A stretch of DNA of 49,854 nt, from assembly GCA_001938485.1 (NCBI GenBank), contig MQRK01224352.1, positions 1 to 49,854 on the forward strand, written 5' to 3'. The DNA comes from Girardia tigrina. Lineage: Eukaryota. The notes beneath the pieces were generated by a model. It made no database searches. It was given only the letters and a program-made list of their open reading frames with translations, and was not told where the DNA came from. Shown here one piece after another: positions 1,925 to 43,789 of the stretch. Positions within the stretch are counted from its first letter, which is position 1. Every line of letters starts with the position of its first letter. The translations under genes were made by a program, and so were the position numbers.

Positions 1925-2215
1925 CTACTGCTTCATAGTATTTATTGATTTTATTAGGGAGTTCACATACGCCTCATAATTTACAGCGGGGTCTCGATGA
2001 AAGATGTGATTCACAACGTCATCGTAGACCGCCTCATTCCAGAAATTCCCATGTATATCATCTTGGAGACATTGCAAGATGAATTTTATGCTCATCGTCT
2101 CTATTTGCATTATCACTGTCAAGATTTGTTTGAAATATTCAAACACTTCCTGCGCTTGAAGGGAATGCATATTGTAATGCTTTAAACATTTAAAACATAA
2201 TATGTTTGTCGACAT
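1925..2215 (-). CDS. Intact 96-aa intronless ORF of unknown function
   Basis: Starts at ATG, has protein-like composition and an N-terminal CxxC, and has TATAAATA about 20-25 nt upstream. It lies in tandem with the next ORF, about 30 bp downstream. Confidence 0.45.
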   Translation of the reverse strand: MSTNILCFKCLKHYNMHSLQAQEVFEYFKQILTVIMQIETMSIKFILQCLQDDIHGNFWNEAVYDDVVNHIFHRDPAVNYEAYVNSLIKSINTMKQ

Positions 2216-2400
2216 TAAATTATTATAACCTTTATTTATATCACCTCACACTCTCCAATTTGTTTTTGATATGCAAATAATGATTTAACTGTTTTGTCTA
2301 ATTAAAATAGTTATTCAAATAATTATTCTTAATTGATTCATGTATTGTCTTTGAAAATAATTATATATACGTGTGTTAATGTTTGTGCTATTTGAGTTCT

Positions 2401-2732
2401 ATTTTTACAAGCTTTTATTACGTTTCATTTGTTTGTTTGTTTGTTTGTCTGTATGGATCAAATCTTGCGATCGAAATTTCACCCACTTCCCGTTGTGCTG
2501 GTGACTTGAAATTTTCAGGAGTGATGTATTCTAGATGACAATACACTATTTCATTTCCTGCTGACTGCTTTCCTGCAGTCAGTAGTTTGTCCGTAAAAAG
2601 TCAATAAAGTGCCGTTCTCATGCTTTTCTTAGTAGTAGGCTTTGAAATTTACTAAATTTAATTTCCAAATCGAATGAGATTTCGCATGTAGTAATAGTAG
2701 GCTTTGGAAATTCAGTCAAAAAAAATTCTGCA
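2401..2732 (+). mobile_element. Probable DINE-1/Helentron-associated-type non-autonomous element, truncated by a gap
   Basis: T-rich start TTTTACAAGCTTTTATT, then an internal (TTTG)n microsatellite at ~2427-2450, then a core with CCCACTTCCCG..TGAAATT. The architecture is typical of DINE/HINE elements; the family was assigned from memory only. Confidence 0.45.
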
Positions 2733-5700
2733 NNNNNNNNNNNNNNNNNNNNNNNNNNNNNNNNNNNNNNNNNNNNNNNNNNNNNNNNNNNNNNNNNNNN
2801 NNNNNNNNNNNNNNNNNNNNNNNNNNNNNNNNNNNNNNNNNNNNNNNNNNNNNNNNNNNNNNNNNNNNNNNNNNNNNNNNNNNNNNNNNNNNNNNNNNNN
2901 NNNNNNNNNNNNNNNNNNNNNNNNNNNNNNNNNNNNNNNNNNNNNNNNNNNNNNNNNNNNACGTCGCGCTGAGCCGACTCCGATCCTTGGAAGGACTACG
3001 AATTGAAGAGCTATGCTGTGAAATGCTCACAGGCAAAAAGCCGTGCAATCAACGAGCTCTCAATGAGATGGAGAGAATGTGACATGTGAATCTAAATAAT
3101 CAGAACATTTCAATCGAACCTCAAAACATTGATGGTGAGTGAGATTTTACAATTAACGATATGAAATGAACTTATGAGAACTTTAACTTCCTTTGCAGAG
3201 CGTACTAACGCAATGACCGANNNNNNNNNNNNNNNNNNNNNNNNNNNNNNNNNNNNNNNNNNNNNNNNNNNNNNNNNNNNNNNNNNNNNNNNNNNNNNNN
3301 NNNNNNNNNNNNNNNNNNNNNNNNNNNNNNNNNNNNNNNNNNNNNNNNNNNNNNNNNNNNNNNNNNNNNNNNNNNNNNNNNNNNNNNNNNNNNNNNNNNN
3401 NNNNNNNNNNTATATATTTCATATCCATACAAATCACTGCAATCAGGTCTTTTAATATGGGAAGTGGGTGAAATACATACAGATCCGCAAACATTTAACA
3501 AATTATAAAAGCTTGTGCACCAAAAATTTTTTTGGCGTGATAATTTCAATTAATATATGTATTATAACTTTTGTCACTGAGAAAATTTGGAAACAAATCA
3601 TCTTTCAAACACAGAAATAATTGTCACATAAATGAACAATAATAATCATAGCACCATGTAATCAAACTTTTCATTAAACTGTGGTCAAAATGGAACTTAA
3701 TTACTGAATGCAAAATAATTATTTAGAAATCAAGTACTCCTTCAATTCGAAAAAGAGGGCCGAGTTAAATTATAAAGTAATTAAGTAATTAATATTCACA
3801 GTCGCTAGATTACTTAAATGCCACTCAACGGTAAAATTGGCAGAGGTACTAATAACCTTCGTAGGAGTCTGGGCTCCTGGGTGGGACAAACTGAAAATTG
3901 ATGTTGATCAGTGTTATTATGCTAAGTGACACGGAAATGATGAGATGATATTTGATACTATTTGCATCAACTATTTATTTAATTATTTTATTTCTTTCCA
4001 CTTTTATCTAAATATTCTGATTGATCCCTGTTCTCTTGTATATTTGATAGACCTCCCCTGGCTGTTAATGCTCTTCTATCCTCCTGAATTTTATACTTTT
4101 TGCAAAATCTTTGATGTTATTCAATTTTAAAATCACTGAAATATAAGCTTTTATTTGAGATATATAAAAATAAGTTCTTCGGAACCCTGTGTTAAAAAAT
4201 TATTTTTTCTCTTTTCAGTGAAATTCCCACTTAAAAAAATTTAATTTCAAATTATTAAGTTCAAAAAGTTTTGAAAAAAAAAATTTATTCGTTATGAGAA
4301 ATATAATGATTTATTATTTATTAAAATCCAACATTTGCATTTTTTAATATTTAATATTTTATAAATTTAGAAACCCAAGCATGATGCCATTTTTAAAATT
4401 TAGATTTTTATTGTTATTTTAATTGTGTTAAAATGTTTAAATTTAAGTGCTTTTATAATTATAGTAATTTTTATTATTTTATATTAATGTCATCTTAAAT
4501 ATAATTTCTTTATTAAAATGATAATTATAATAATTATATATATTATGAAGTCAGTGAGTAAATATAAAAAAGTCCATTATTTATTATTTGTATTCTGTCA
4601 GTAACAATGACTTGTTTCCATATATTATCACAAAAAACCTTTTTTCCTCTACTTTTTGTTATAAATTTCATATCTAATTACCAAACATAAATTATTAATT
4701 ATTTCAGTGCAAATTAAAACAAATAATATTATATTTTATTTATGTCATATTCTTCAAAAAAATCAGTTACAATATTTATTAATTCTGAAAATTTTGATAA
4801 AAAGAAATATTTATTTTTTGTTAAACATCAAAAATTTATTTTCTTGTAATTTCAAACAAAAATTATTTTTTATATTATTTGCTTACTTTTTTTTATAATA
4901 CTAATAATAAAATATTTAAGTTCAAATTTATTTTTTAACGTAAAATATATTTTTTTTAAATTTTAAATTAATTAAAAAAACTGTTTATTGATTTAAACAG
5001 ATAAAAGTAAAAAATATTTTATTTTCAATTTAAAATAATTTTTATAATTGACAAAAGTCTTTATAAAAAATGAATCATGTTATAATTTCAAAAGAGAGAA
5101 AACGAATTTATTTATTAAATGTTAAATTAGTTTAAATGATTAATTTGAGAAATGTAAACCAAATAATATGAAACCATTTTTATTGGTAATTGATATCCTA
5201 AAAGAATAAATATAATTTAATTAATTGACAAAAAAACTTAAAATAAATATATTTTTATTTGAAAAAAAACAAAATATTATTTAAAAAAATAATATTAATA
5301 AATATAGGGGTTGGAAAAAATATGGAAACACATAACATTTTGGTATCATGTTTTTAGGTCTATTATTTTGTTATTTCTTATGTTTATTTATATTAAATGT
5401 TTTTAACGAAAATTTTGAAATAGGTTACGATCTGCTTAAAATGGCAGACCTATCTGACATGTACAGAACCAAGTTTTTAAAAGAAATGTTTATCGGGACA
5501 TTCTTAAATCTAGATTCCAAGAAAGAACTACAACTAGAAAACTTTTGCTCTTAAAACAATCTTTCAAAGCGTTTAGAGTTGTAATCTCTAAAAGAGTCCT
5601 TCTAGCAGTTGATAAATGGGATTTTCCTCTGGGTATTACCTCTGGCCCGAGTGTAAGTTTCGGGTGAGTCAAAAAAAGCATTTTATCGAAACTACATTCT

Positions 5701-5891
5701 CTCAACCGTAAACCATTATGGGGTTTTGTGATAATCAAGAGTTTAATTTCTTAGAAAACCAATCGGTCAATGATTTTTTTCATGAAAGAATTAACTGCTG
5801 AGACTTTTTAGGAATTTTTGGCTTCAAAGTGTATTCTTTGGTTCAAGAACTAATTATAGAGATGAACACCATCTTTCAAGATAAAAATACC

Positions 5892-6039
5892 AGTATGAGG
5901 AAAATGCGGGTTCTCCCCCACCCCCCCCCGAGGGGGTAGCCCGTTTCCACGGCAACGATTACCATAGCAACGGTTCCGGTTACCATGATAACGGGCTACC
6001 CCAAAGGGGGTGGGGTAAAACCCGCATTCCCCCACTACT
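5892..6039. mobile_element. 148-bp fold-back element with Polinton/Maverick-type termini and a 6-bp TSD
   Basis: AATACC flanks both sides (5886-5891 and 6040-6045). The left end is AGTATGAGGAAAATGCGGGTT; the reverse complement of the right end is AGTAGTGGGGGAATGCGGGTT. Arms pair at 5903-5912/6019-6028, 5916-5925/6006-6015 and 5933-5945/5990-6002. Confidence 0.75.
5943..5992. promoter_or_regulatory. Three RFX X-box-like motifs
   Basis: GTTTCCACGGCAAC (5943-5956), ATTACCATAGCAAC (5958-5971) and GTTACCATGATAAC (5979-5992), compared with the consensus GTTNCCATGGNAAC. Confidence 0.6.
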
Positions 6040-7672
6040 AATACCAATTCATACACCTAAAATAGTTAAAACTGGAATCTGAAAACATCTCATCTGAAGA
6101 AAACATGGTGCCATGTTCATATGGCCATTTGGGACAAAGGATATTGCTAAAGAGACAGGTACTTATACCAAAGGATATTAATAATAAAAGATATTAAAAT
6201 AAATGATATTAAAAATATATTCATTATTTAATTATTCCAGAAAAGATTTAAGTATTTTACTGTTTTTTTGTCAAAAAGACAAAATAATCTTTTATAAAAT
6301 AATAAAATATTTATATAAATCCAAAAAGGAATTCGTCTTTGATAACAAAAAAAACACTCTAACATTCAATAATTTAATTTATGAATTTATAATTTTCTTT
6401 GAAGATTTTTTTATTAGTTTATATTTGGTTTTTTTTTATTTGTTTATTCGTTATGGTCGCATTTTCAACATTTGTATAATTATTAAATTTCTTTATTAAA
6501 TTATATTTTCGCATCATATTCGAACAGGAATTGTTTAATTTCAAGTGTCGCGTTTCATTTCAAGTTTGGCTTAAATATCCTTCATAAAAGGCGGCAATTT
6601 ACTGAATAAGGAAAGAAGTACTTTTTTAAAGAAACAATGTGATAACAAGGGAATTATAAACATTTAATAAATATTTTTCCCAATTTTTCAAATGAATTTC
6701 CTAAGGGAACATTAACAAACTTCAATAATAATAAAAAAATAAAATTTAATCGGAGCAAAGATTTCATAGAAGTATCCTCAAAATTTCTGCGAAGGAGGAA
6801 TTTTAAATTACGTCTACGTTGAGAAGGAGTAAAGAAAAGATTGTCGATAAAAGTTCTGTTTAATATAATTTTATGAACTCTTTCACTCAGCAATGCTTTT
6901 TGAGATTTGGAGTTCATAAAGTTGCGGGTGTTTTGTGTTGAGCAGTTTGAGAATGTTATACGCGTTCAAAGATTTTGAGGTACACATTCTTTGTGAAGAT
7001 ATACTTGTAGAGCAGTGAAAGGGTAATTGAGAAATTTAGATCAAGAATTTAATAAAGAATGTCATTAAAAAGCATAAATTTTAAGTTCTTCCAAAGTAAT
7101 CTAATTTTTTAATGTAATTTGTAATATTAATTTGTATAAAATAAATATAGTAATAAAATATCGAAATAGTGACAGCAACCCGGAAAACAAATAAAGATTC
7201 GGTCTTTTAACTTTAGTCAATATTGCAATAGTTAAAAAAAAGTTACTGAAATTAGTCAAAATATAATGAAAAAGATTAGAAAAATAATAAATAAATATAT
7301 TAAGATCAGTGTCCGGTCACTTAATTTTCAACATTTACTCCTTTGGTACATAATCCTACAAACTTCCCAAAACTTCAATGAAAACTTTAATTGATGTACC
7401 AAGTAAAATTAATATAAGCACGACTCTGAACTAGCATCGTTGGAGACTTAAAAACACCGAGATCAAGAGATTTTTGGGGTTGTTTTATTTAAAAGAATTT
7501 AAAGAAATAACAATAAATACAAATTATCAACTAAGAGAAAATCAAACAAAACATAGATTTAAAATTTACTTAAACCTTTTACAAAATCCAAATACTGATA
7601 AGTTTTTCAAAGAATTTGTAACTTCAGATAATAATTTGATTTAATTCATAATAGGAAATATGCATTAAACAT

Positions 7673-8875
7673 AAGGTGTGTCCACTAAAAAAGTGCACAA
7701 GTTTTAAAACCATCATAACTTTTTAATGTAATATAATTTAAAATCGTAAATTTGGAATTTAAATATTTGTTTTAATAGGTTAGAAATAGTAAAGCAGGTA
7801 TTTAAAATTTTTGGTTTAATATGTTTTATTTTAGAGACAATTATAATGATTTCAAAACGACATGAAAATATAATCAATTTTTTCAAAACGCACAGTAAAA
7901 GTGAGACTGTGACAAAGTTTACTGGCATTCATTTTTCCAGAATAGGTATATATGTAATAATACAACGCTATAAGAAGACCGGCAGCATTGAAAGAAAAGT
8001 AGGAAGTGGAAGGAAACCTGTTAAAATGACGTCAGACAACGGGAAGAGACTTCTGCAGCGTGCAACTTTGACTGTTGGACAAAGTGGGAGAAAGTTAGGT
8101 AGATAAATGAATGTTTCAAAGTCTTACGTGCATAAGATGCTCAAGACTAATAACATAGTGTTTCGAAAGAGTAAAGAAATCCCAAAGGTTACTCCGACAC
8201 AGATTATTCGCCAGAAAGCCAGGTTACACAATCTCGCTAAAATTGTTGTGGAAAAGACCAAAACCGACTTTGTACTTGATGATGAGTCGTATTTTACACT
8301 CACCGGAGCAATGACATCGGGTTATTATGTGGACCAAAAGAAGTTCGGTCATGTAACTGATAATATTCGCCTTAAATTTCAAAAGAAATTCACAGTAAAA
8401 GTTTTGGTTTGGGCAACTGTTTCCAGACAAGGCATTTCAAACCTGTACATCAGGAAATGGAAATCTGTAACTTCTAATTCGGATATTTATATCTCCGAGT
8501 GCTTAACGAAGCGTTTGCTTCCTTATCTGAATGATAAATACCCAGCTGGTCACTTCATCTTCTGGCCAGATCTTGCTGCTTGTCACCACGCCAAAGTAAG
8601 TCTGAAGTGCTTAGAGGACAACAAAATTCCATTTGTCAAAAAAGATTCGAATCCACCTTGTGCTCCCCAAATACGCCCAATTGAAAAGTTTAGGGCTCAT
8701 TTAAAGGAGAAGGTGTTTGAAAAGGGTTGGACTGCCGATTCTGAAGACCAGTTGATTCGCAGAATCAAACTAAAGCAAAGCAGTTTAACAATTTATATTT
8801 TAGGACATTATTTGCAAATTTTCGACAAAGAATAATGCTTGCTAACTCTTATGGCCTTAATAGTTTGATATAATA
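7673..8875 (+). mobile_element. IS630/Tc1/mariner DD37E-type transposon; transposase interrupted by an in-frame TAA
   Basis: ORFs 7846-8106 and 8107-8835 are in the same frame. HTH region ERKVGSGRKP; catalytic FVLDDESYF, FWPDLA and PQIRPIE with 37 residues between the second D and the E. Left TIR candidate at 7673; no right TIR found. Confidence 0.9.
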
Positions 8876-9800
8876 AAATAGTTATTCTGTTATTATGATC
8901 TTAACTGGATTTTAATTTGTATATTTTATGTGTTCATGCCTAATCAATCTAACATGTACTTTACTTTAAATAAAGAAGTGAAATTATGCATTACAATTAT
9001 TTCTATTACTTTTTTGTAAAACTAGATTCTAACACTTGAGGACATAATCAATTCTCAGTAGACTTTAGACATATACAATTTTATATGTATTTGGTTTAAA
9101 GTTTAAAAGAAAATGTTCATACGTACCTTTGAACCAATTCGTATAAGTATTAAGATTCAATGAATACATAATAGCTCAATCAAAAATAATAAATATATGC
9201 TTTAAATGATAACTATAACTATTAACTGAAAACAGTTTATACTAGTAATTATAATGTAAATAGTTACTATAATTGCAATTATGATAATTATTTTAATTAA
9301 ATGGAATTACTTGTATTTAGGCATCCGTACAATTGCAGTTTGAGGCAGATTTTTTCATTTGTCGATTGATAGGGATAGAGTCTCAACCAGCGGGCGATTA
9401 ATGGCGGCTCTAATGATATAAAGTTTTCATTTAAAGGATCCTTACGACAGATTAATTCCTAAAATAGTTAAATTAAAATTAATTTAGTAAAAGCAAATCA
9501 TATTTCCTTTAATTTATTTTCTAAGTTAGTTTTTTATAATAAAAACGATAAATATTATTTATATATATATATATACGAAACAACAAATATTTATTTTAAA
9601 GAATTTTTAATCTCAATCTTCGAATCTTTTGCTTTTGTTGAAACTTTATAATTAAATTAAATTTAGAAGATAGGCAAAATTAACAATAAAAAAATTTATT
9701 ATGTGATTTCCTCTGCTTAAAGAGTGTTATTTATAATATGTTCAATCTTAGTAATTCATTCATAATTTTTAACACTTGGTTCAAATATATATTTATTACG

Positions 9801-10233
9801 TGTCTTAAGAGCACCAAATGGACTTTTAATATTTTTATTAGTATTATAAGTTTGATTGCCATCAGGACAATCTTTGGCAAAGCTTTCATACAATCTCATC
9901 TTTCTAATTGATAATTAACTATGATCTTATTATCTGAGTAAATAGAGATTTAATAAATTGTTGAAATACTTATTCCAAATTTTATTAGTTAAAATTTAAA
10001 TGAAATATTAATTATTTAAAAAATATTAATTCAATTTATTTTTTAAAAATTGTAAATAAAATTAATCAACTTATTTAAAATTTTACAATTATTTTAAATT
10101 AGAAATACATTTAAACATTACATATTTTCAGATAATAAGAATTAAAATATTAATCATCTATCTGAGTAGGAGAGTCACAAATCTAAACAGCATACAAACA
10201 ACAAACTTACAACATTCCAAAGTATCCCTCACA
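9801..10233 (-). repeat. Solo LTR related to the TGTGAGG family
   Basis: The minus strand starts TGTGAGG, contains CTCCTACTCAGAT, and ends ...TTGTCC..GCAAT..AATAAA..TTGGTGCTCTTAA, like the copies at 29354, 41603 and 44993. Confidence 0.65.
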
Positions 10234-10439
10234 TGCATCATTTTAAAAATAGATCTCATGTCCCTCAACGGACGCTGCGAAAAATAAAAGTATCAATGCG
10301 AATATCGTAACATTTATAGATCTTGTCTTTTAATGTTTTTACAGAATGATTTCAATAGCAAAACAGTTTGTCACTACTAACCGGATTATTTGTAAAAAAC
10401 AGTGACGTCTCTTAAGAAAGTATCAAGAAACTTTCAAAA

Positions 10440-10720
10440 CGTTATAATACGGTTGAATAAAATGATGACAGATTTTTGAAAGTATTTTAATAAAACTGTT
10501 TCTTTATATATGATCACTAATCCTGATTTTGAAATGAAGATTTGACTCTCCATTTATAAATAAATTTATAAACTACATTACCCTGGAAATTCAATTTTTT
10601 TCGATTTTTTTGAGATGAAGTTTTGAACTTTAGATGTCATTGAAACCACGTTGACATTATAGATATTCTTACAGTTGCGGAGACGGTGCCTCGACTTTTA
10701 CTGATTCTAATGACACATCC
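10440..10720 (-). mobile_element. Degraded Penelope GIY-YIG endonuclease fragment
   Basis: Minus-strand frames give FQGNVVYKF and GESNLHFKIRISDHI, matching the VVYxFxC..YIGET-R-L-RI-EH pattern. Confidence 0.65.
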
Positions 10721-11061
10721 AGAAGTTCGATGTTTTTTTTAATGATATTGTTAAACATTTCTAAGGAAATGATTTTGTACATTTAATATTAATAGATGAT
10801 TTCAAAATAACATATTCGTTTTCAAGATTACTTTGCATTGTTCAATTTCATTAACACTCAGTAAAGGTTTAGATTTTTAATATTGATATCCTTTTTTGTG
10901 ACAAAACTGGAATTCGATTTCTTCAAAGAATATTTATTTAAATGGTTAGACTCGAAGAATGTTTTCTTTTAATTTGATAATAAACTTTATTTTTTAATTG
11001 AAATAACATTTCTTTTTAACAATTGAATTGTGATAAAGAGAAAATCAATATTTTCTCTCCC

Positions 11062-11165
11062 AAACACACACCAATCACAATTTAACATGTCACATTCACA
11101 CACACACATGCATTTAACATTTCTTTACACGCACACATTCAAATTCAAACAAATACACACACAAC
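11062..11165. repeat. Degenerate (CA)n-rich simple repeat
   Basis: Several ACACAC runs. Confidence 0.6.
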
Positions 11166-12164
11166 TAAGCTAATCACTCGATTGACCAATTCAAATATCT
11201 CAGAAAACTCAAAGTTTTGCACACATACATGTCGAACATTTCTTACATTTTCATTTGTAATATTTCGAAAAAATCGATTAATCGAATTATTTGCGAATGT
11301 ATTACGAAATAAAATTACCATTTAATCGATAAATAACCGAAACATCTAAGTGCAGATCAATCGATAAATATGAATAGTCCTAAATGTTCCGAGAAAAATT
11401 AATTTACAAAAATCCATTTAATGTGACAGAGGTCAAAACAAACCAATTATTTAATTAATCCAATTAATTTTGTTTATTTATTTATTTTCTTTAATTACGT
11501 TATTTGATTATATGTATTTTAATTTATTTGTTAATTTTATTGATTTTAGTTATTTAATTTACTTAATTTAATAATTTATGTAAGGGCAAAATATTCGGTC
11601 AAATCGAATCAATTTCCGCTCCACTTAAGAATACTCTTCTTAAATCCGGTAAATCATTCAAAAATGGTATGATGACTATTTGTTTGTGCTCTTTGATGTT
11701 TTCTTTCTTTTATCTTTTCTTTGCTCATTTTTACTTTAATGATTTGTCAAATATAACCTTAATTTTGTGATATATTTGTTTGTTTGTGTACATGTAGTCC
11801 CTCAAGCTTCCTCAAAGAATATTAAAACCATGATTCATTATTGCAAAAGAAAAATTTGAAACCCTTAATCAGTAGGTATAATGAAAAGTTGGAAAGATAA
11901 TTGGTAAAAATCAAAGTAAGTCGGTTATGAATGGAATTTGGAGAAGAATCAGCTGTTATTAATTCTTTATGTAGAAACTATGAAGTGGACTATTTATTTG
12001 TATTTTACTTTCTCAGTTTTCGATGTGGAAATGAATATTTTTTCCTGGCAAGTAATAATATGTTTCAATTTCGAAGACTCTGTGATATTTTCAAGTTTAT
12101 TGTATTTATTAACAACACAAACATTTTCACTAGCAATTTCTGCTGGAATCGTCATTCTTGATTA

Positions 12165-12509
12165 ATATGCTTTTTGTATCTAAATTCAAATCTTAAAATT
12201 AATTAATGTGACAAGATTAATATTAACTTTTAATTTCTCAAAATTTTATTGGATAAAATTGCATTAAGTAATTTTTAAAATAAACATTAGTTTTTTAAAA
12301 TATATAAAATTCAATAAGTTAAAATCCTTTACTAAAAATATTAATAAAATTTATAATTATAAAACTTTTAAGTAATTAGTATTTAAAAATGAATTTCATT
12401 AGATTTAAATAATTAATTGATAACATATAAATCCAATCTGAGTAGGAGAGTCACCAATCTGAAAAGCATACAAACAACAAACTTACAACATTCAGAATTT
12501 TCCCTCACA
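12165..12509 (-). repeat. Partial LTR copy, same subfamily as 9801-10233
   Basis: 12437-12509 is near-identical to 10161-10233 (TCTGAGTAGGAGAGTCAC..CATACAAACAACAAACTTACAACATTC..CCCTCACA). The left boundary is approximate. Confidence 0.65.
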
Positions 12510-12592
12510 GTATTAATTAATAATTTTAATTTAGAATAAATTGAGAAAAATAGCAGATTATTAAAATCAAAATTCGAAAGTCAATTGAAAAT

Positions 12593-12631
12593 ATTTATTA
12601 ATTTCGACGGTTTAACCGTCATCGTTAGAAC
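12593..12631 (-). ncRNA. Minimal hammerhead ribozyme in the inverted pLTR (core G5A mutation)
   Basis: gtt-CTAACGA-t-GACGG-ttaaa-CCGTC-GAAA-TTAA-T-A-aat. Confidence 0.65.
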
Positions 12632-13447
12632 AAATGATTTTTCAAACGAAATTTACTTGTATAGTGCAGTTAGTGATTATGCAATCAATACGTAATCAAT
12701 GCATCATTTAAAAACTAATTTGCGGAAATTCTTTGGCGTTTTAAAATTTAAATTATATTATAAAGGATATTCAAAATCGATAGTGGAGAAATTAACAAAG
12801 GAAACTATTTATAAATTAATTGACAAAAAAAGTAAAACTAAAATTTTAGATGTTCAAGATCAAGAGCAATCTTGCAACACTAATGATAAAAGTTTGGGAA
12901 TTGTTTATGTGTTAACTGTGCCATATTCAGAGGGGTTTAAAATATTTAAAAATTCTATTTTAAAAGCGTTAGATAATGCAGTAAGTTTAAAAGTAATATC
13001 CCGGACCCAGAAAATTGAAAGCATGTTTGGCAATAAATCTCCAACGCCATTGGGATTGTGTTTGAATCTCATTTACCAATATACATGTAATGGGTGTAAC
13101 GCCACATACATTGGAGAGACTTCACGTCCTCTCTGTAAGAGAATCCAGGAACACAGTCGCAATGAAGGTGGAATTAACATTGCAGGGCAAAGAAGACATT
13201 GTAAAGGAGATATGACTTTATAACACTTTAAAATTCTGTGCACTCAATTTAAAAATTATTGGGAGAGAGTGGCATGTGAAGCTTATATGTGAAGATCTTA
13301 TATATATAAGATCTTTGAATCCTAAAATTAACGTTCAAACTACACTCTCTATAACTTTGTTGAGTTTTTAAATGATGTATGGATTACGTATTGATTGTAT
13401 AATCATTAACTGCACTATATAAGTAAATTTCGTTTTAAAAATTATTT

Positions 13448-13486
13448 GTGCTGACGATGACGGTTAAACCGTCGAAATAAATAAAT
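13448..13486 (+). ncRNA. Minimal hammerhead ribozyme in the 3' pLTR
   Basis: gtg-CTGACGA-t-GACGG-ttaaa-CCGTC-GAAA-TAAA-T-A-aat. The core is intact; there is one mutation each in stems I and III relative to the sister copy. Confidence 0.75.
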
Positions 13487-14203
13487 ATTTTCAATCGGCT
13501 TTCGAATTTTAATTTTAATTTAATATATTGTTTTAATATTTCTTATTTTGAACATTAAGTTTTTTCTTTTATATCTTCAAAATCATAAACACATAATGAT
13601 AAATATTTTACATGAAAGAAAATATTTTTGATATTTCATTTACATATTATCGATGAAAGTAATTGTAAAGTGTAATGTACTGTAATTGTCATGTTGAAGG
13701 AAAATGAAAATAAATCTGGATAATATTTTGAATTTATCAATAGAAAAAATATATGATTTTGAGAATATATATGAATTTCTAATAATAGAAAAAATAATCA
13801 TAAAATATTTCTTACTCTTGAGCCGGTGTAATTTTTGTAAAATTTCCAATCTGACTGATTTTCTTGTTTGTATTTGAGAAAATAACTTTGCGCTGAGGCC
13901 TTAAAAAATATATATTCTTATAATTTATACTATTATTAATTTGAAAATGTTGAATATAAATCTGATATTATGGAAAAATTATTCTTCGAATTTAATTTTA
14001 TTTACATATTTCTTATTATTATGTATATTTCGAAATTTCTCTTACCTTTGCTCAAAAGACAATCTATCTTAAATCTTATAAATGACAAATTCGATCTGGT
14101 TTATTGATGTTTTCCTTGAATATGTTTGAATATCCTTGAATATATACCATATTTCTGTATGTATCGATATATGTTTATAATAAATATAATTAACAAATAA
14201 ATA

Positions 14204-15620
14204 TTTAGGTTGTCCCAAAAGTCTTCAGGTGGCCTTTAAAAACACACTAATATTTTACCAAATTTAACCAAATTTGGACTGAATATTATTCAGACTGTCA
14301 TAAATAGTGTGTTAAAATTTCAAAGCATAAAATTAAAAAAGTAAAATTTTGTTTTATTAAAGTATTGAAATTTTAAAAGTGCAGCGAATTCAAAGCAAAC
14401 GGTTTTTAACAATGGAACCAAATAAATATTGACAACGTTTTTTTGTTCTAACTCAAAGTAAAAGAGGATTCTCTGCTTCAGAAATTCTTCAGCAACTTGG
14501 GAATTCTTCATGGGAAGACTCAAATCACCCAGCACTGAAAACTATTCAACAATGGTTGACTGATTTTAAAAAAGAAAAGCGGACGTCCTTCGACGATTCA
14601 TCAAGAAGTGGTAGGCCGTCATTAATAGATGACGAAAAGATTAAAGCAGTCAAAGAAGTGATTGATGAAGCTCCAAACGCGTCTTTGCGTTATATTGAAA
14701 ATGAACTTTCTTTAGGCAAAAATACAGTGCACAAAATTTTGCGTGAAAAACTTCATTACAAAAAAGTTTGCTCTGTTTGGTCCCTCACGAACTTTCTGCT
14801 GCTAATAAACAACAACGCATTAACACTGCAAAGCATATACGCCATGCAATTTCATATTTGGGTGATGAAGCATATTCCAACATAGCGATCGAGGATGAGA
14901 CATGAGTCTTTTTCCAAGGTAGAGGAAAGAAGATCACAAAGTTTGGATTCCTTCTAATGCTGTTCCACCCAAAGTGATAAAGCCATCGCCAATGACTGAT
15001 AAAAAATCTCTTGTTTTCGTAACCTTTACCTGCAACAAAACGTTTTAATGTAAAAGCACTGCCATATAGTACCAAGATTGATTCCGAGGCGTATGTGAAC
15101 TTTGTTCATGACACCGGTGAAAAATGGCGGAAACTTAGATCTAACAGCATCAAGCTAAAGAAACTTAAGTGGTGGCATGCAAGACCTCATTCTAGCAAAG
15201 AAAAAACTCTTTTTTTGAAAGAAGAAAAATTGAAAAAATTTATCAATCGCCCCATAGTCCAGATTTTAATCTGTGTGATAGATTCTTGTTTTCAAAAATG
15301 AAGAAAAGTTTTAAAAATCATGTTTTCAAATCACATGAAAAAATTGAAGAAGCTTTTAAATTCTTTTTTAATTCTTTATCAACAGAAACCTTAAAGAATC
15401 AACTAGATAAACTTTTTAACTATTTTCAGTTGGTTATTGACAACAATGGTGAATATGTTGTTGCTTAGGAAATTTTTAAAATATTTTTTTAAATAAATTT
15501 TTAAATTCGCTGCAACTAATTTTTTTTGTTGGTTAATAATATTATTTTTTTGGTACGTTTCAATTGTATGCTTTGAAATTTTAACACAGTATTTATGACA
15601 GTCTGAAGGGACAGCCCAAG
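14204..15620 (+). mobile_element. Full-length degraded mariner with TIRs and TA TSD
   Basis: TA|TTTAGGTTGTCCC ... GGGACAGCCCAAG|TA. Internal inverted repeat 14289-14329/15567-15607. Motifs RSGRP, WSPHEL, DET, HARPH and YSPDFNLCD occur across frameshifts. Confidence 0.9.
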
Positions 15621-18600
15621 TAATATGTTTAATTATAATTTAAGAATTATTAATCATAAAAAAATTTAATTTCAGTCAATTAAAAACCCGATCTTTGTAT
15701 TATAATTGACTTGTTAATAACTCATTACGAGCAAAATTTAATCGTTTTTGATTTTTCATCGCTTGTCAGCCTCGTTTAGAGAATGACTCGCTCTGATTGG
15801 CTAACCAAGCAGCACGACCTTGGTGGGAGCAAAATATTAGGTGATTTTAAAATCACCATTCACAAACAGTCTCGTTATACATGCTCGATTGGGAGGATTG
15901 TTATTGAGGAAAACATGGGGAATGCGAAAGACAATTATTATTTTTAGTAGTATTATTATATCATCATTATTTTTATTATTATTATTAATCTTTAAAATAT
16001 CTTAATAATAATCAAAAATATTTTATTCAGAAAATTTAAAAATTGTAATCAGCAAATATTGATTTAAGATTTTTTAAATTATTCATAAGTAAGGCTTCAT
16101 CAACTGGTTCATTAATATGGTGGTTTATGGAAACAAATAAAATTCATAATTTAACAACTTAATGCTCGGATAATTTCTACAAAAATTGCAATAAGTTTTA
16201 AAACAAAGTCATTTAAATAATATTTATTAATGTTTTAAAAACAAATCAACTCAAGGTCAAAAAAGACAAGTGCAAGTTTTTGTCTTTATGAATAGTATGC
16301 CAACAAGTCGAGCAGCGTTTGGATTAGTGATATGCAATAAGTACGAAGAGCGCGAGAGATACTCGTTCAAAGGAGGGAAATGGTTAAACATACAATGATA
16401 ATATTTATAAAAAACTGCAGATCTTCATTTAATTAAGTATTTTTGTGACCAGAACAAAACCAAAAATCAAAGCTCAAATTTAATTTAATTCCACCAGGAA
16501 ATTTGAAATAAGCGTTACAAATTAGTTAAAAAAATATATTTAAATTGTTTAAATAATTAATATTTTTATGATAATAAATAGTGTTTTATTAACTATTGCA
16601 TTTAATTATTATAAAATTAAACATAAATACTATATATTATAAAAGAAATAGAGAAATTATCTAAGATGTAATAATATTATATTTATTTAATATTTTTTTC
16701 TTAATAAAAATAAATTAATCCTCTAGAAATAAAAAAGAGATTTGAAAAAAGAAAAAATGATCAAATGAAAAATTTCCGAATAATTTTTAAAATAATAATG
16801 CGTTTTATAAATATTATAAAAATATAAAAATCATATATGTATAAAATTTTAATATGAAAATGATTCTAAGATTCTGACGCAATGGAAATATATTAATTTA
16901 TCCCGATATCATCACATGGGCAGCATAGCATTGATAGCGAAATTATCCCCCTCAATCCAGCTCGCGTCCGTTCCATCCAGATTGTCACGGTCATAAATCA
17001 TCCCGAAAGTCTCATCATCCAATCTAATTCGTATTCATTAAGATTGATATTTGATAATGTCCTCTAATAATTCCGTCATCAATTTTTATATCATTAAATC
17101 GCCGAATAAATGAATTATTATCAAAACGAAAGTCTCATAAAAGAATTGTCTTAGCAAAAATCGAAGCTTGGTTTATTATTTATTTTAATTTTTCATTTGA
17201 TCTATAATGATAATCAGTTTGTCTTCACTGGGAAATGTAATAATTTCTTTTCCTTTTGCTTAATAACTTCAAACACATATTATTTTCTTTTTGTCTGGAA
17301 ATATTTTCAAAGACAAAAAAATTCAATATTATGATTTTTAATCAACCATTTTTGATGTTTTTATATTGCAAGAAAAATTAAGAAAAAAATATTATTACGT
17401 GTTAATAAAAAAAATATAAATGATTTCTATACATTATTTCTATTGAAAAAAGTAAAATGCATTTTTTTCTTTTATTTTTAGAAAAAATATTTTTTTAATT
17501 AAAATTATTTGAAATAATTTCAGAAAATTTTTAATTAAAATAAAAATTTTTTTTCTTTATTTATTTTTATTCATAAAATTATTTATTTGATTTTATTTTT
17601 TAATGCATTTTCTAAGTTAGGAAATAAGTTAAAATCTGTGTTGCTTGAAGCAGACTCATTTCCTTAAGTAATCTGAAGTCTGAGGAAAAAAAAAGAAAGT
17701 TTAAACATTTATTAAAATAAATAATTAATTTATAACTATTGGAAAATAAAAACAAATGTTACTTTTCGAGGTTTGATGAATTATTTTCGTTAATTAATTA
17801 GAAAAAACTGTTTGTTTTTGGAAATTAATTAAAATATGTTTTTGAATATTTTAAAATAAAAAATGTTAATTTTTTAAAAAAATTGATTTTCTTTTAAAAG
17901 AATAATTTATTATGATATTAAATATTTTTTTTAATTTTAATTATTTTCATAAATTATCTTCTTTTATTGTCTCAGGAATCAAAGACGTGTGACAGAAATA
18001 CCATATAAATGTGGCTGGTATATTGGGATCTCATTGAAAAAGATAAGAAAAAAAATATTATTTAAATCATACAGAGTCATATTTTAATAGATAAAAATAA
18101 AGGTAAATTAGAAGCCTTAAATTGTTTATTTTTGGCAGCGTTTTAATTTTTTGTGGAGTGAATAATAATGAGTCAAATCAGCACAAAACATAATTTAACA
18201 TATTTACACAATTATAAATTATTAATAATATTTTTTTGTAAAATTATTAACTTAAATAAGTAATCATCAATAAAATTTTATATTTAGAAATATATAATAA
18301 GAAATAACTGAAGTATACAATTTTAATATTACCCGTTATAATTATATTCATAAGAATTAATATATATTTCGTAATTTTAGTGATATTTTAGTGACATCAT
18401 TATTTATGTCATTTAAAGGAGTAGTAATTAAGATAATCAATAATAAAAAAATAATAATTTTACAATAAAAAATATTTTTTCGATCATATTTAAAGCGTAA
18501 TTATTATATTTTAATTAAAAATTATATAATTTTTAACAAAAAAATTAAATTGAGATGAACTTCATTTTTTTCAAAACTTCGAAACAATATAAAATTTTAA

Positions 18601-20156
18601 ATATAAATAATATTCAATTAAAATGAAAGTTTGATTTAAAATTATTGCAAATTTACTTAAAATATTTAATTTTAAATCATAGAAATTGTTATTTAATTTA
18701 ATTGAAATTTAAATTTAAATCCTTACAAGATTAATTATTTAATTAAATTATTTAAATCTCAATAAGCGAAGTGAAAATCAAGTGACTCATCATAAAAAGT
18801 ATATATATATTATATAGTTAATAATTACAGAAAGTTTTAAATATTATTTTTTTTAATAATTATAAATTAAAACATTTATTTTTGAGAAAATATTTAATTT
18901 GCAATCTGCCTTGTAGATCTTGTTTTAATTAACTATTTTATGTTTGTTTAGCTAATCCTCAAATTCATTATTAAACATAAAAAATATATAAATGTAATTA
19001 TTAGCTCAACCTTAAACTGTGTTGTTATAATAAAAAAATATTTCAGTTGTTATAATCAGATTAACAAATAGCTCGATTGTATAAAACGTTGTTTAATGAT
19101 TATAGATTTGGGATTTTATTGTTTTAACTATATAAAAAAGCAAACATTAAACTATTTATTTGGTTTTAAAGCATTTTATTTTATATCCAAAATAAATAAA
19201 TATATTCGTCTTGAAATTATCTATTACAATTTTATGATTTTGCGATTGTTTTTAATAAAATCCTTTAGAGAGGTTCTGTCCAGACAGAAAATTTTCAATA
19301 TTTAAACATTTTTAAAATTAATCATATAGAATAAATATTTTTTACTTACAACTTTACATTTTAACTAGTTATTTAAGCATAAGGAGGAATAGTCGTAAAT
19401 AATATTTACCTCCACAAATGAACCACCCGTACTTTATAGCAGTTTTAGGGACAACCAAAATATGATATAAATGGAAAGTATAATAATCCAAAAGTAATCA
19501 TCCCTGAGGTACTTACCCTAGGATCATCATTCCAAAATTAAAAAGAAGAGATTTTAATTGTTTTTATTTTTTTAATAATATAATTTAATATTTTATTTTA
19601 TAATTTATAAACTATTATATAAAATTTTATTTTTGCAATCAAATTATTTTTTTAATTCACAATGAATTGAATTTCTTGAATTATCAAATTATTTTGTAAA
19701 TAGAGACAAATTAAGTGTGACATTGCATTTTTAAAGGATTTATTTACTTGAATTTGTTTTCGTATTTAATTAGTTGCGATATTCGACTAATTTTTTTAAT
19801 TGTATTTTGAATATGTCTGATTGATCAGATAACCTTCTTAATTATTATTTTATTGCACCATAAGTTGAGTTATAAGGATGCTCCGTTTATTACAATTGAT
19901 TTATATATATATATATATNNNNNNNNNNNNNNNNNNNNNNNNNNNNNNNNNNNNNNNNNNNNNNNNNNNNNNNNNNNNNNNNNNNNNNNNNNNNNNNNNN
20001 NNNNNNNNNNNNNNNNNNNNNNNNNNNNNNNNNNNNNNNNNNNNNNNNNNNNNNNNNNNNNNNNNNNNNNNNNNNNNNNNNNNNNNNNNNNNNNNNNNNN
20101 NNNNNNNNNNNNNNNNNNNNNNNNNNNNNNNNNNNNNNNNNNNNNNNNNNNNNNNN

Positions 20157-20966
20157 AAAGGGTTTTCAATTTTTTATGCATTTCATCAATTTCATGACAG
20201 TACCTCTCCGCTGTGATTGTTTCACATGGATTCAAGAAACTATAGTGGATGATTCCAGCATCACACCACCAAACTTTTCACCATTACCTTACGGGGTTTT
20301 CGGTTTTGAAAAGTGTTTCAGTACTTCATCTTTGTCCAACCACTGTGTAGATCGACGTCGGTTATCATACAGGATCCATTTCTCATCACAGGTAACAATA
20401 CGATCAAGAAATGGATCGTTTTTATTGCAAAGATGATTGGCAGAACAAATTTCATAGCGTCGGTTCTTTTGATTTTCATTCAAATCATGTGGAACCAATT
20501 TATCAAGTTTCTTGATTTTTCCAAGTAGTTTTAAATGATCCAGGACTGTTGAATGACTAATGCCCAACTCATCTGCAAGTACTCTGATTGTTGTACGGGG
20601 ATCTGTTTCCACCATTGCCCTCAAATTGTCATTGTTCACAGCAACTGGACGACCACGACCTTCTTCAAGGTTTTCATCTCCATCAGAAAATTTTCGGAAT
20701 CATCCTTGCACTGTGCGCACAGAAGCTGTTCCCTTGCCAAACGCTTTATTGATATTGCGAGCCGTTTCTGCTGCTTTACGACCCAGTTTAAATTTGTACA
20801 AGAAAATTGCTCTAATTTTAATTTTTTCCATTATTAATTTAGTACCGTAAATATTCTAAAAAAATAACAGCAATATGTTAATAATGACTATAGGAATATA
20901 CAGCTATGCATAAGATTTCAAATAATATCTAACACTAATGCATTTAAACTTATATACATATCAAAG
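20157..20966 (-). mobile_element. Mariner transposase (cecropia-like), bounded by gaps
   Basis: ATG 20831 MEKIKIRAIFLYKFKLGRKAAETARNIN; also LVPHDL and FLDRIVTCDEKWILYDN. Confidence 0.95.
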
Positions 20967-23159
20967 NNNNNNNNNNNNNNNNNNNNNNNNNNNNNNNNNN
21001 NNNNNNNNNNNNNNNNNNNNNNNNNNNNNNNNNNNNNNNNNNNNNNATATATATATATATATATATATATATAACTATTAACCACAAAAGTACTTCTATT
21101 ATATTTTTCAATTAAAAAACAATTAATTAAAACAGTTCTATCAAATTTAATTGGAAGGGAAAGTTAATTTTGGTTCTATTGTTTACTTTGGTTATTTTCA
21201 GCTCCAGCATCAAAGTAACCAATTCACTCCCTAAAGCTAGTTGTGATGATCTTTTTTATTTTAAAAGCACCGTGACACTAAAAATTTATAAAGTTCTTTT
21301 ACAAAATAATATTCTGGCATTAAAGACTTAATTAATGTTTCAAGAAAATTTATGATAGCGATTCTTATTTAACAAGTAACTTAGTTTATCATACTTTTAA
21401 TAAATTAAAAAAATATATTCTACCAATATAGGGTTAATGAAGGGTTAACTTGTGATGTATAGAGAATGATTGTAGAGTTAAGTTGAATGTTTTCGGTTGT
21501 GCTGGTAGACGACATTACTCGAAAATACATATTTATGTTACATTCGGTAAAATGGTAAAGTGCATTACAAAATACAATTAATTTATTTTTAGTAATAAAT
21601 AATATAGGTAAAATGGTACAAGGAAATCTTAACTCTAAACAATAATGATGATTTTAAAAAAAGCTCCAAAACAAAAGTTTTGATTTCTTAGAAATATGAC
21701 TGAGGAATCGTAATTAAACTATATAATATATCGTCAAATAAATAAATAATTGTGTTTCCCTATGTATATTTTACGATTAGAAATTGCAAAGAAACAAGTG
21801 TGTGATTACTTCAATTAAATCTTCTGCTCTTCTTATGAAAAAGATTCAGTGAATTTAGACAAACTTCTAATATCGATAGTATGAGAAGAATAAATAGACC
21901 TGAAGACGCATTCAAAATCCAAATCATTTGAACTCTTTCAATAATTTTCTAATTTAATTTGTGTAAAGATTTTATTACATTGCAAATTTCAGACTTTATT
22001 ATAAATTTTTTGGACATAAATTATTTTTTATTTTGTCATTCAATAATTTTATTACCTGTGAACATCATTTTATCTTTTATATCTTAGTAGACCCGTGACA
22101 TTGTATAAGTCGTCTTGCTGCGTGATAAAATCAGATCAAAACATTCGTGAATAATTTGATTTTTAAAATATACAAAAAATTAAAATTTCAGTTAAAATTC
22201 AGTTGCACTAAAATTACTTGTTAGATGAGGTACAAAAAACAAACATGTAAAAGTAAAAATAATAAGTAAAAAGAATCTTGTTTAGGTAAAAATGAAAAAA
22301 AAATCTAAGACATTCACTTAGGATCTTTTGTTGACCCTTGAGCGTCTGTAGGTCACAGTTTTGAAACATTTCATCTAAATAATTGAAATATTTTTTATTT
22401 AAATTTTTTAATTTTTAATTATTATTTTTTGTAAAAAGTATGCTCAATCATTTAAAGATAATATGTAAAGGATAATGTATTTAAAATAATCATAATTTAT
22501 TATTTGAAAAAAATAAGAAATAATATTAACAAGAAATAAAATTTTTCATTGTTATATTTTCTGAAAATATAATTTAAATAATATTTTTATTTTGTTTACA
22601 TATTATTTTTATCTTCATTTGATCGACAGTTTTTTTTGTTTTAATATTTATGAATTAAACTCAATTTCATCTAATTTACATGAAAAAAATGTAATTAAAA
22701 TAAAAATAAACTTATTTAAAATACTTCCATCATTTATGTTTTTTGTTTATTTTAATGTTTTTTTAAAAAAAACCAAACATTTTTTATTCCATTACTTTTA
22801 AACTAAAACTTAAAAGACATTTTTATTTAGAAACAAAATTAATTGTAAATATTTGCATTATATTTTTTCCATTATCCATATTGAATTAATTTGTATAAAT
22901 AATTGTTTCAATAATAAAACAAATAAAACTAAATAAAGGAGTTTTTGTTTAATTTTTTTTAATTATCAAATTACATTAAATGAAATGAACTTTTAANNNN
23001 NNNNNNNNNNNNNNNNNNNNNNNNNNNNNNNNNNNNNNNNNNNNNNNNNNNNNNNNNNNNNNNNNNNNNNNNNNNNNNNNNNNNNNNNNNNNNNNNNNNN
23101 NNNNNNNNNNNNNNNNNNNNNNNNNNNNNNNNNNNNNNNACCGAAAGATTTTATTGATA

Positions 23160-24730: not shown

Positions 24731-25770
24731 TTAGGTCATCAAGTATTAAATTTGTCAAAGTTTATCGATAATTTACCAAAACAAATATTTATGTCATTCA
24801 TCAAAGTATGCACCGACACACATTTGATATTTCAGTGGCAACTTGTTAAGGCTATTTGAATAAATAAATTGTGGGAAAAAATCTATAAATTCCTTTTCAG
24901 TCATTTTTACAGAATCTTACATTTTTACAAAAAGTTGTTGAAATTGAGGAAGAAATGGTATTTAGTTGGGTTTAAATCTGGAGAGTATGATAGTTCAAAA
25001 GTTCTAACTCAAGTTCCTGTAGTTTTGTCATGATCTTAAGTGCAGTATATGGTTTTGAATTGTCGAGAACCAAGATAGGAGTCGATCTATTTAACAAACA
25101 TGGCTCTTTTTCATTGTGATTCAGCCTCATATCTTCAAGTTGGTTGTAGTAGACATCTGCTGTGATCGTCGAACCAGCTTTCAGAGAGTCATAATGGATT
25201 CCGCCTTTAACAGACTACCAAACACTCAGTACCAGCCTATTTTGATGAATTTTGAGCTTTGTTCTGTGTTTTGATGCTTCATCAGAGTCCCCTAGCTTGC
25301 TGAACGTTTTCGATTATCACATGGGATCCGATTTTTATCACAAGTGACCATTCGTTTGAAAACATTATCACATTTACAAGAGTAAGCATCATCAAACAAT
25401 CATTCTAACTCTTTTATTTCTGTTTTTTAATTCAACTCAAGTAAAATCCTTTTATCAATTTTTTTACTTTACTAATTTGAACGAAAATATTCAATAAAGT
25501 TTGCTTTGTAACAGCAAACATTAGCGATAAATAATGAACAATTTGTGATGTATCCTGCACCATAGTTACCTTCAGTTTTTCATTACTTACCTGTGCTGCA
25601 GAGGTACGGCGACCCCGAGACTCATTATTAAGATTGAAATGACCTTTTTTGGTGTAATAAGTTTTAATTGTTGTAATATATTTATAGGAGTCGACCTATT
25701 TAACAAAAATGGCTCTTTTTCTTTGTGATTCAGCATCATATCTTCAAGTTGTTTGCTGTAGATATCTGCT
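24731..25770 (-). mobile_element. Degraded mariner with 3' TIR and a duplicated internal 87-bp piece
   Basis: TA|TTAGGTCATC at 24729-24740. Motifs NESRGR, MVTCDK and LSVW. 25075-25161 is repeated at 25684-25770. Confidence 0.85.
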
Positions 25771-29353: not shown

Positions 29354-29872
29354 AGTGAGAAATATTTTAAATTTGATATGTTGAATTTCGTATGTTGAGT
29401 TTAGTATTTGGAAATGTGTTTCTCCCACCCAGATGGAAAATTGATATTTTAGATGTTCACGATAAATAATTATTCGAGTATAATTTATATTTTAAAGTAC
29501 AGCATAATATATTTAAAAAACTTTAAAAATATCAAATCGTTTCAAATTTTAATATTAAAAATTTAAATAAAATAAATAGTTTTAACTAAGTTTTGAATTA
29601 AATAAATGTTCTTTCTTTAAATAAAATCATTTTTAAAATAAAATTAATATATAGTTAGAATTATTACTAAAATTACAAAATTTGAACTTTAAAAATAAAA
29701 TCTGAAAATAATGAAAAATTTGTTCGATTAATTGTTTATTAAAAAACATTAACTAAAATTTATCAATTTAGAACGATGTTGAATTACGAAAGCTTGGTTG
29801 AGAGTTGTCCAAAGGACAATTCAAATTTTACTGAAAATAAAAGGTCAAAAATCCATGTTGGTGTTCTCAATA
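29354..29872 (+). repeat. Solo LTR with 5-bp TSD AGTAT
   Basis: Highly similar to 41603-42102 and 44993-45524. AGTAT at 29349-29353 and 29873-29877. Confidence 0.85.
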
Positions 29873-29949
29873 AGTATAAATTAAGTTGTCCTGTGTTCGA
29901 TTATGCATAATCGCTTCTTTGCATAATCCGATTACATAATTACGCTATC

Positions 29950-30760
29950 GTCAGTTCCAATAAGTTGCTGGTCAAAGTAACTTATTCTTTTGTAAATTGT
30001 CCAGTTCCACAACCAATATCGATGATACTCAAAGGATATCGAATTTCAAAATTTTTTGAACAATCGTCAATAATCAATAATCTTCTGCACTGTTAAGAGA
30101 ACTCACTCATTTGACAGAACATTTATTACATTCACATTTCTTATCATCTTTATGATGATCAACAGTATTGCTTTCACTTAGATCCATCAATCAATTTTCA
30201 ATATCTCCCATTATAATCTGATCTATACTTGAAAAAATTATTTTATTTAAAAATATCATTTTGGGGTCTAGTTCTTTGATCACATAAAGATCTATTAACT
30301 TTTGTGTTCCCTCAATAGCCACATTTAATTGAACGATTCCATAATTGATCATTTCTGAATCATTTGCGTAATAGATACGTTTTTTCGTTTCTCTTATTTT
30401 AATACCTTTCTTGTTTTTAATTATCTCCGCTTTAATTATATTTACTCTTGCTCCAGTGTCCAAAGGCAATGGATATTCCTATCTTTCACGTAAAAATCCA
30501 CACATGGACGTCCTTTCAGTTCTTTATAATTTATCTTAAACTTTGATATCTTGAATATTTCTGTTTTACCATTTAGTTTCTTATCATCTTGAGTTGGTGT
30601 ACTATTACACTGTTCTCGATTTACAATATCTTTACATTCTAGCGTTCTGTCAACACATCTTCTCCATACACTTCGCATAATTTTCTTCTTGCTTCTACAG
30701 CATTTTTACATTTTTGGAAGTAAAAAAGTAATACATGCCGTAAAATCTGATTCTTGCTTT
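29950..30760 (-). mobile_element. Gypsy gag-end/aspartic protease remnant
   Basis: LDTGARVNII, YYANDSEMINYGIV and LYVIKELDPKMI fit the retropepsin pattern, preceded by GRPCV and a Cys-rich gag tail. Confidence 0.8.
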
Positions 30761-32319: not shown

Positions 32320-32435
32320 AGTCAATGGCCGCAGTTGGGTACGCCGGATCTCGTCCGATCTCCGAAGTTATGCAACCAAATGCCGCGTTAGTACTTATTT
32401 GGGTTACCGATAGAGAAATTGCGGGGCCAATGACT
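32320..32435 (+). rRNA. Divergent 5S rRNA-derived sequence (pseudogene or SINE head)
   Basis: GATCTCGTCCGATCTCCGAAGTTATGCA (box A region) and GTTAGTACTT..TGGG..ACCG (box C region). Terminal helix AGTCAATGGCC/GGCCAATGACT. No poly-T terminator follows. Confidence 0.88.
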
Positions 32436-38229: not shown

Positions 38230-39384
38230 TTGTGCATCGTTTGCAATGAGCAAGCTCATTCCTTTATCTAAGAAACATGAATAAAATGCTTTTTTATAAT
38301 TAGTTCTTTCGAAAAACTTTCCCAAGCAATATTAACCTATTTTGAAATCAACTCATATGGTGGAGGTTTTTTTTCTACCAGATTTGGTACGCTCACAAGC
38401 ATCAGATTGAAACCATTGAGCAGTTTTGTACCACAGGCAGTCTTTTAATGGTTAAAACCCAAAATAATCCGCTAGCTGAAGAAGACTGGTAAAACTGCCT
38501 GGGATAATACAAAAAAATCTTTATTTTTTTGCAAATGCTTTTTTACCTCTTTGGAAATATGGCATTGGGCACTATCAAATATAAGAAGTTCATTAGGTCG
38601 TGCAGTTACCACGGGGAACATGTACTCAATCCAGATTTTGAACAATATCGTGTTGATCCAGGAGTTTGTAACTGTAATTTGAACAACTCCATTTTTTGTA
38701 GAGATTAATTTATTTTTTTCTTTAAAAATAATAGTCAGGGAAAGTTTTGTTCCCGCTGCATATGCAACACAAATACTAGTGACCCTAAATCTAGACATAC
38801 TAGCTGCTACAAAAGGGACATTTTACACCAACTTGTTCGATAGTTTTGAAATGATCATGTTCGATAAAGATTGCCATTTCATCAAAATTATAAATATTTT
38901 TGGCAGAATCTTTTATTCCTTAATGAGGCCTTTGAGATGAATAATAAAGCTTAATCCTATTTCGATCACTTAATCATCATCTAAGCAACATATTTTGTTA
39001 GCTTTCTGATTGTTAAATGGTTTTTCATAAGAAATTTATCCAGCCAACCAGTAGATGCCTCAAATATTGAAGGATCCAATTCCAAAGCAATCTTTTTAGC
39101 CCATTGAACAATAATTTTTCTCGATACAATTTTTTTTGAAGTAGCCATCTTTAATTTTATCAACTAAAAAACCATCTAAATCAACGCATTCCATTTTTTT
39201 CTAGTGCCGTCCAAGCGATAGCGAACTGGATCTGTACCACAAATAGCTTCTTCGGCCGCAAACCATTCTGTCAGTGTTTTACGATCCCTTTTAAATTTTT
39301 TAATGTTTGAAGCTTGTTGCCTCCAGCCTGATAATCATTAATTGCTTCTAATTTATATTGGTTGCTATGCTTGTTAGATTTCAT
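38230..39384 (-). mobile_element. pogo/Tigger-type transposase remnant (CENP-B HTH plus DDE_1)
   Basis: FEASTGWLDKF, IYNFDE, SWIN..F..W, LLIFDSAQCH and PGSFTSLLQLAD. TIRs not identified. Confidence 0.9.
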
Positions 39385-43750: not shown

Positions 43751-43789
43751 GATAATATATTTCGACGGTTTAACCGTCATCATCAGATC
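43751..43789 (-). ncRNA. Intact minimal hammerhead ribozyme
   Basis: gat-CTGATGA-t-GACGG-ttaaa-CCGTC-GAAA-TATA-T-T-atc. Stem I is gat/atc; stem III is the palindrome ATATAT. Confidence 0.8.

Follow-up and report, generated by a model that had tools for sequence, protein, structure and literature searches.

A dispersed short element with Maverick/Polinton-type ends around a variable array of X-box-like palindromes in Girardia tigrina

We identified a 148-bp insert (5892-6039) in a 49,854-nucleotide stretch of Girardia tigrina DNA, referred to here in its entirety as the window, that is one copy of an abundant dispersed family. Judged from its sequence features, the family is probably a tandem-repeat-containing MITE, in which two arms of ~50 bp with Maverick/Polinton-type ends surround a variable 21-bp array, and it is probably mobilized by Polintons; we give this reading a rough probability of 0.6.

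The insert is bounded on both sides by the direct repeat AATACC (5886-5891 on the left and 6040-6045 on the right, plus strand). These coordinates, the 148-bp length and the flanking duplication had been proposed in a sequence-only reading of this DNA and were confirmed in the sequence. Exact 6-mer duplications at equal spacing occur at 61 of the 47,825 window positions (0.13%), and the window holds seven AGTA..TACT pairs that have such a duplication of 6 bp, of which only the one at 5892-6039 has matching 20-bp tips (15 of 20 positions). The GC content of the insert is 0.59 vs 0.27-0.28 in the adjoining kilobases, and as single-stranded DNA it folds into a single long hairpin of -41.2 kcal/mol (z -5.85), a value equaled by none of 200 shuffles. 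The terminal inverted repeats (TIRs) consist of a left arm of 51 bp (5892-5942, plus strand), which starts with AGTATG and contains a C-run and a G-run, and a right arm of 47 bp (5993-6039, minus strand), which is an inverted copy of the left arm and ends in ACTACT. Three X-box-like palindromes lie between the arms (5943-5956, 5958-5971 and 5979-5992), with a single base separating the first from the second. The second palindrome and the 7-bp asymmetric spacer behind it form a full 21-bp array unit (5958-5978, plus strand).

Alignment of the two halves of the element, comprising the arms and adjacent boxes, gave 47 identities, 14 mismatches and 4 gaps over 65 columns, and the arms are 72% alike. 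The GC-rich near-palindrome of the sequence-only reading stands with respect to base composition and hairpin, but the palindrome is imperfect. Similarly, of the doubled AGT/ACT trinucleotides claimed for the ends, the right ACTACT is exact, but the left end reads AGTATG, leaving the full doubling at the right end only. We also noted runs of 3-9 G residues on both strands of the insert (five plus, six minus), such that G-quadruplexes could compete with the hairpin. No Rfam match was found at the element.

Evidence for a dispersed family came from two public contig sets, X1 and X2, which derive from one organism and one study and share 0.83 and 0.28, respectively, of the words of the window; X1 is possibly the source of the window itself. 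Contigs were placed on the 701-bp stretch 5600-6300 at 80% likeness, each at its best place. This stretch was matched by 4611 contigs in X1 and 2396 in X2, with the depth concentrated on 5888-6007. On the unique left flank, the summed contig depth, which does not equal copy number and provides bounds only, was 53 in X1 and 141 in X2. In the three bins across 5888-5959 it was 0.68-1.1 million (X1) and 0.31-0.52 million (X2), and it peaked in the bin 5960-5983, at 6.05 million and 3.25 million. The raw ratio of arm to flank depth is 2,200-21,000, or 70-680 once the greatest overlap that is possible, a factor of 31, is divided out, and from these bounds we estimate a copy number of hundreds to a few thousand. 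The element-to-flank ratio differs ~3- to 6-fold between X1 and X2.

The left boundary is shared across the family. Among the loose ends displayed (15 of 260 rows), 26 X1 contigs and 21 X2 contigs had matches that began exactly at 5892 and were preceded by other sequence, with a flank agreement of only 0.41 and 0.40, indicating that many different AT-rich flanks precede this position and hence that the copies are dispersed. Since these family matches start at 5892, the A at this position is part of the element, and a length of 6 bp, as first claimed, is the better reading of the target site duplication (TSD). The 7-bp alternative (AATACCA), which would also break the A..T symmetry of the ends, was rejected. 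A mobile mini-family with Polinton-type ends, as the sequence-only reading had proposed, is likewise supported by these unrelated flanks and the large depth excess. A second pile of loose ends was observed at 5901 (27 contigs in X1, 23 in X2); these end in AGTAG in both runs, followed by G and not by a second AGT. The largest likeness class was 90-95% in both sets (2398 of 4611 contigs in X1 and 1269 of 2396 in X2), which suggests that the expansion of the family is moderately old.

Both junctions of the window copy were present in X1 contigs (5600-5926 and 5965-6064). The left junction was also found in X2, in a contig at 5698-5927 with a depth of 141 and 5 other letters, and the insertion is thus common to the two samples. 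The depth contributed by other copies to 6008-6031 of the right arm was 423 in X1 and 0 in X2. This lack could be due to best-place mapping onto the left arm or to a record filter, the latter being plausible given that the right flank of the locus itself (6080-6151) also has zero depth. The family boundary is known at the left end, and the TSD and right end are known from one copy (5892-6039). No empty-site joint was found among the joints listed for X1 and X2, neither blastn nor nhmmer detected a second copy within the 50-kb window, and run X3 (organism B, ~1 in 100 raw reads) gave nothing on the element, with its 22 reads corresponding to AT-rich matches at 6152-6247.

The contigs also revealed that the center of the element is a variable array and not a join scar. 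The array unit of 21 bp comprises a 14-bp X-box-like palindrome and the 7-bp spacer, arranged head-to-tail, and 130 contigs in X1 and 101 in X2 continue behind 5994, at the third box, into additional box-plus-spacer units. We computed periods for 13 joints, using the 12 of 22 joint rows shown together with one go-back row; the other go-back row repeats a joint already counted, and two skip joints were omitted because they are deletions. Nine periods were 42, three were 63 and one was 64, so that 12 of the 13 are exact multiples of 21, a common divisor that equals the spacing from box 2 to box 3 in the window copy. Array length accordingly varies among copies (joints of period 42 and 63, and one variant with a 33-bp skip), contrary to the expectation that all copies would be ~148 bp with the same center. 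Wherever the inserted letters were long enough, in the window copy and in the displayed joints (12 of 22 rows), the spacers were unidirectional. The letters that predominate in X1 at 5946 (T to G, 155,898 of 187,839) and 5950 (C to T, 114,190 of 121,468), with the same majorities in X2, make box 1 a perfect 14-bp palindrome in most of the family depth. The depth of the center is 5-11 times that of the arms, pointing either to many copies with long arrays or to an additional occurrence of the 21-bp unit in free arrays. Tandem Repeats Finder reported no rows for 5892-6039 alone, and the array is thus evident only from other copies. The idea that the X-boxes supplied a recombination join is not supported, as the boxes are units of this family-wide head-to-tail array.

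X-box-like 14-mers start at 5943, 5958 and 5979 in the window copy, and two or more were found in none of 5000 shuffles, with a pattern that was set after the motifs had been seen. We take the boxes to fit the RFX X-box consensus, a 14-bp GTT..AAC palindrome. A distance of 21 bp corresponds to two helical turns, which would place the boxes on the same side of the helix. At the ends of adenovirus genomes, NFI and Oct-1 sites are auxiliary origin elements bound by host factors. RFX factors, which bind X-boxes, are regulators of cilia genes (PMC2913254).

A 6-bp TSD combined with one perfect end (ACTACT) is the basis for a probable membership among Polinton derivatives. Intact vertebrate Mavericks have a 6-bp TSD, most often (AGT)2//(ACT)2 ends, and TIRs that range from 46 to 1,447 bp (PMC8097293); the arms of the element are near the low end of this range. 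A TSD of 6 bp is reported to be rare, and the other DNA transposons compared here that have such a TSD carry TA or TG ends (PMC6839031, PMC10045372, PMC2836005). The element resembles animal Mavericks/Polintons (PMC8097293; PMC3014272) in TSD, TIRs, AG..CT ends and exact (ACT)2 right end. In contrast to these elements of 12.7-24.6 kb, it is 148 bp long and gene-free, with arms 72% alike, a left end of AGTATG and a 21-bp array. An autonomous Polinton was rejected, since 148 bp is too short for the pPolB, integrase, ATPase, protease and capsid genes of such an element (12-25 kb). Also rejected was membership of IS3EU/GingerRoot and of Ginger1/Ginger2: the former share the 6-bp TSD and TIRs but have TA..TA, sometimes TG..CA, ends (PMC10045372, PMC6839031), and Ginger has TGTNR termini (PMC2836005), whereas the element ends in AG..CT. 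For Ginger2, the accessible passages disagree on TSD length (PMC10045372, PMC6839031, PMC2836005).

A full-size Polinton probably provides the enzymes for such an element. Its retroviral-type integrase, which makes 6-bp TSDs where the termini have AG ends, would insert the element in trans. With its fold-back shape and AGT-repeat tips, the element could also be copied by the protein-primed polymerase of the helper, and slippage at the palindromes, or unequal exchange there, may lengthen and shorten the array. None of the 71 ORF stretches in the window matched a Polinton family. Each of four pattern scans of viral contigs gave no matches, a scan of metagenomes gave five that were dissimilar beyond the pattern and attributable to chance, and blastn against a phage collection returned no match. 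We consider tentatively, and with considerable doubt, a more elaborate proposal, in which the element would be an Alu-like, gene-free Polinton parasite of ~150-400 bp, a MITE family of a thousand copies integrated and perhaps copied by the enzymes of a virus-like element, whose array of phased predicted RFX sites would act as an auxiliary origin bound by a host factor, in the way of the adenovirus NFI and Oct-1 sites, and which would have seeded the host genome with clusters of RFX sites and perhaps also with a satellite.

The element is short, falling within ~100-800 bp, and non-coding, with TIRs and a TSD, in line with the definition of MITEs (PMC7764229), and like MITEs it has dispersed copies that share a left boundary; the uniform length of MITEs is lacking given the variable array. 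Longer non-autonomous Polintons are probably recorded in Repbase. An anole survey found Polintons in fewer than 10 copies, far below the copy number here, and non-autonomous ones were apparently missing (PMC3014272). 'Maverick' MITEs have been listed for Helicoverpa armigera and H. zea (PMC7764229, PMC9033116). Like our element, these are small, with inverted repeats and a 6-bp TSD; unlike the much more abundant family described here, they number only 6 and 5 sequences, of 50-800 and 306-654 bp. MITE Tracker assigned them to Maverick on the basis of TIR and TSD, and the available passages give neither a link to a helper nor an internal array (PMC7764229, PMC9033116). The earlier impression that tiny Polinton derivatives are poorly described needs amendment in that these two surveys already contain such MITEs, assigned from TIR and TSD.

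For the array, the closest parallels lie outside Polintons. DTC84 of Donax trunculus, in the passages available, is also high-copy and non-autonomous, with ends that serve as a cassette around an array whose length varies and with a palindrome in each unit that is proposed to drive length change, as the 21-bp unit here holds a palindrome (PMC3879986). It differs in that its putative TSD is AA, its inverted repeats are short and it carries a microsatellite (PMC3879986), whereas the element here has a 6-bp TSD, full AGT-tipped arms and a 21-bp unit. Tetris of Drosophila virilis is similarly an array-bearing foldback/tandem-repeat element that is non-autonomous and high-copy (PMC4079207). We found no high-copy family of equal size and build in the accessible literature on small or non-autonomous Polintons and on X-box-array transposons, most subscription papers and Repbase Reports being outside our reach; this is weak evidence that the family is novel.

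The main competitor to a Polinton-mobilized MITE, possible but clearly less probable, is an ordinary tandem-repeat MITE moved by another cut-and-paste DDE transposase that makes 6-bp TSDs, in which case the palindromes would be subterminal repeats that the transposase binds and the AGT ends would be coincidental. Duplications of 6 bp are known for hAT6 and an unclassified family. Such an origin would agree with the many cut-and-paste transposase fossils in the window, with the doubled AGT being complete at one end only, and with a size, copy number and build like those of DTC84 and other known MITEs that contain arrays (PMC3879986). Against it, the 6-bp TSD and the exact ACTACT together match the commonest published Maverick signature (PMC8097293), and the 6-bp-TSD groups that we compared (IS3EU/GingerRoot and Ginger) end in TA or TG.

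We regard it as unlikely that the copies are instead immobile remnants of many full-size Polintons with X-box arrays in both TIRs, each collapsed between palindromic units in the manner of solo LTRs. Palindromic units would permit exchange between inverted arrays, a variable number of units would be expected, and the available passages report hundreds of defective Mavericks in some vertebrates (PMC8097293) and TIR-only Polinton insertions in C. elegans (bioRxiv 2024.01.15.575659). However, hundreds to thousands of full-size insertions would be required, and collapse between inverted arrays would usually switch the direction of the spacers, which is constant in the window copy and the displayed joints. 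Considerably less probable still is a family that is mainly a one-armed repeat or satellite-carrying element (an arm with a 21-bp array, Helentron/HINE-like, or a free minisatellite), of which the two-armed copy with a TSD would be atypical. The 5- to 11-fold excess of center over arm depth and the near lack of depth from other copies on the right arm of the window copy are in line with this possibility, but in the window copy both arms are present between exact 6-bp duplicates, expected by chance at 0.13%. Best-place mapping may also have put right arms on the left arm, and the records are filtered, with zero depth even on the right flank of the locus itself (6080-6151). The recovery of only one copy from the 50-kb window could be taken to favor a one-time collapse of a lone Polinton at this position, as the sequence-only reading had considered, or an assembly artifact. 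Multi-copy dispersal in two samples, with at least 26 and 21 contigs carrying other flanks, depth thousands of times that of the flank, and the left junction in the second sample, makes either almost certainly wrong.

The window is AT-rich eukaryotic DNA that is rich in transposon fossils with mariner/Tc1 and pogo-like domains and contains 1009 N. CpG observed/expected is 0.99 over the whole window, indicating no CpG depletion. The flank interrupted by the insert (5300-5891 and 6046-6150) is a degraded, coding-looking stretch, one minus-strand frame of which may resemble a LINE 3' end. Nine read-through frames of this flank gave no Pfam match at the cut-off, no paralog was found in the window, and the one phmmer match of the minus-strand frame among 1.84 billion proteins, a repeat-rich bacterial-type surface protein, was judged spurious. 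In the left flank, one contig per sample skips 150 bases (5712-5863; depth 22.9 in X1 and 70.4 in X2; short side of 26 letters), reflecting a deletion allele or a paralog.

Elsewhere in the window, transposase fossils of the mariner/Tc1 and pogo-like types are found at 3-404, 7750-8835, 14289-15607, 20292-20699, 24975-25214 and 38475-38822, and the fossil at 14289-15607 retains 50-bp TIRs at 94%. An AT-rich hairpin of 220 bp (43704-43923), with 101-bp arms that are 94% complementary and an 18-bp loop, is probably another MITE. At 12560-13519, inverted repeats of 157 bp (92%) flank an ORF that weakly matches GIY-YIG (E 0.012), possibly a Penelope-type fragment, and a weak retrotransposon peptidase match lies at 30194-30478 (E 0.00023). 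We also noted an isolated 5S rRNA match at 32321-32435 (57 bits; gathering score 38), which may be a divergent gene, a pseudogene or a SINE head, and three copies of a ~520-bp repeat (29363-29884, 41612-42114 and 45016-45536) that are 66-93% alike by segment.

What the family means depends on its helper, and the link to Polintons is no more than probable. If the helper is a cut-and-paste transposase, the family would be one more array-bearing MITE, of modest importance. If the helper is a Polinton, ~50 bp per end would suffice for mobilization by a Polinton integrase at the scale of MITEs, the minimal cis ends of this transposon-virus group would be defined, and the copies would provide a large natural set of insertion sites from which to derive target preference. 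The family spreads clusters of X-box-like palindromes, which may matter for regulation and for the origin of minisatellites.
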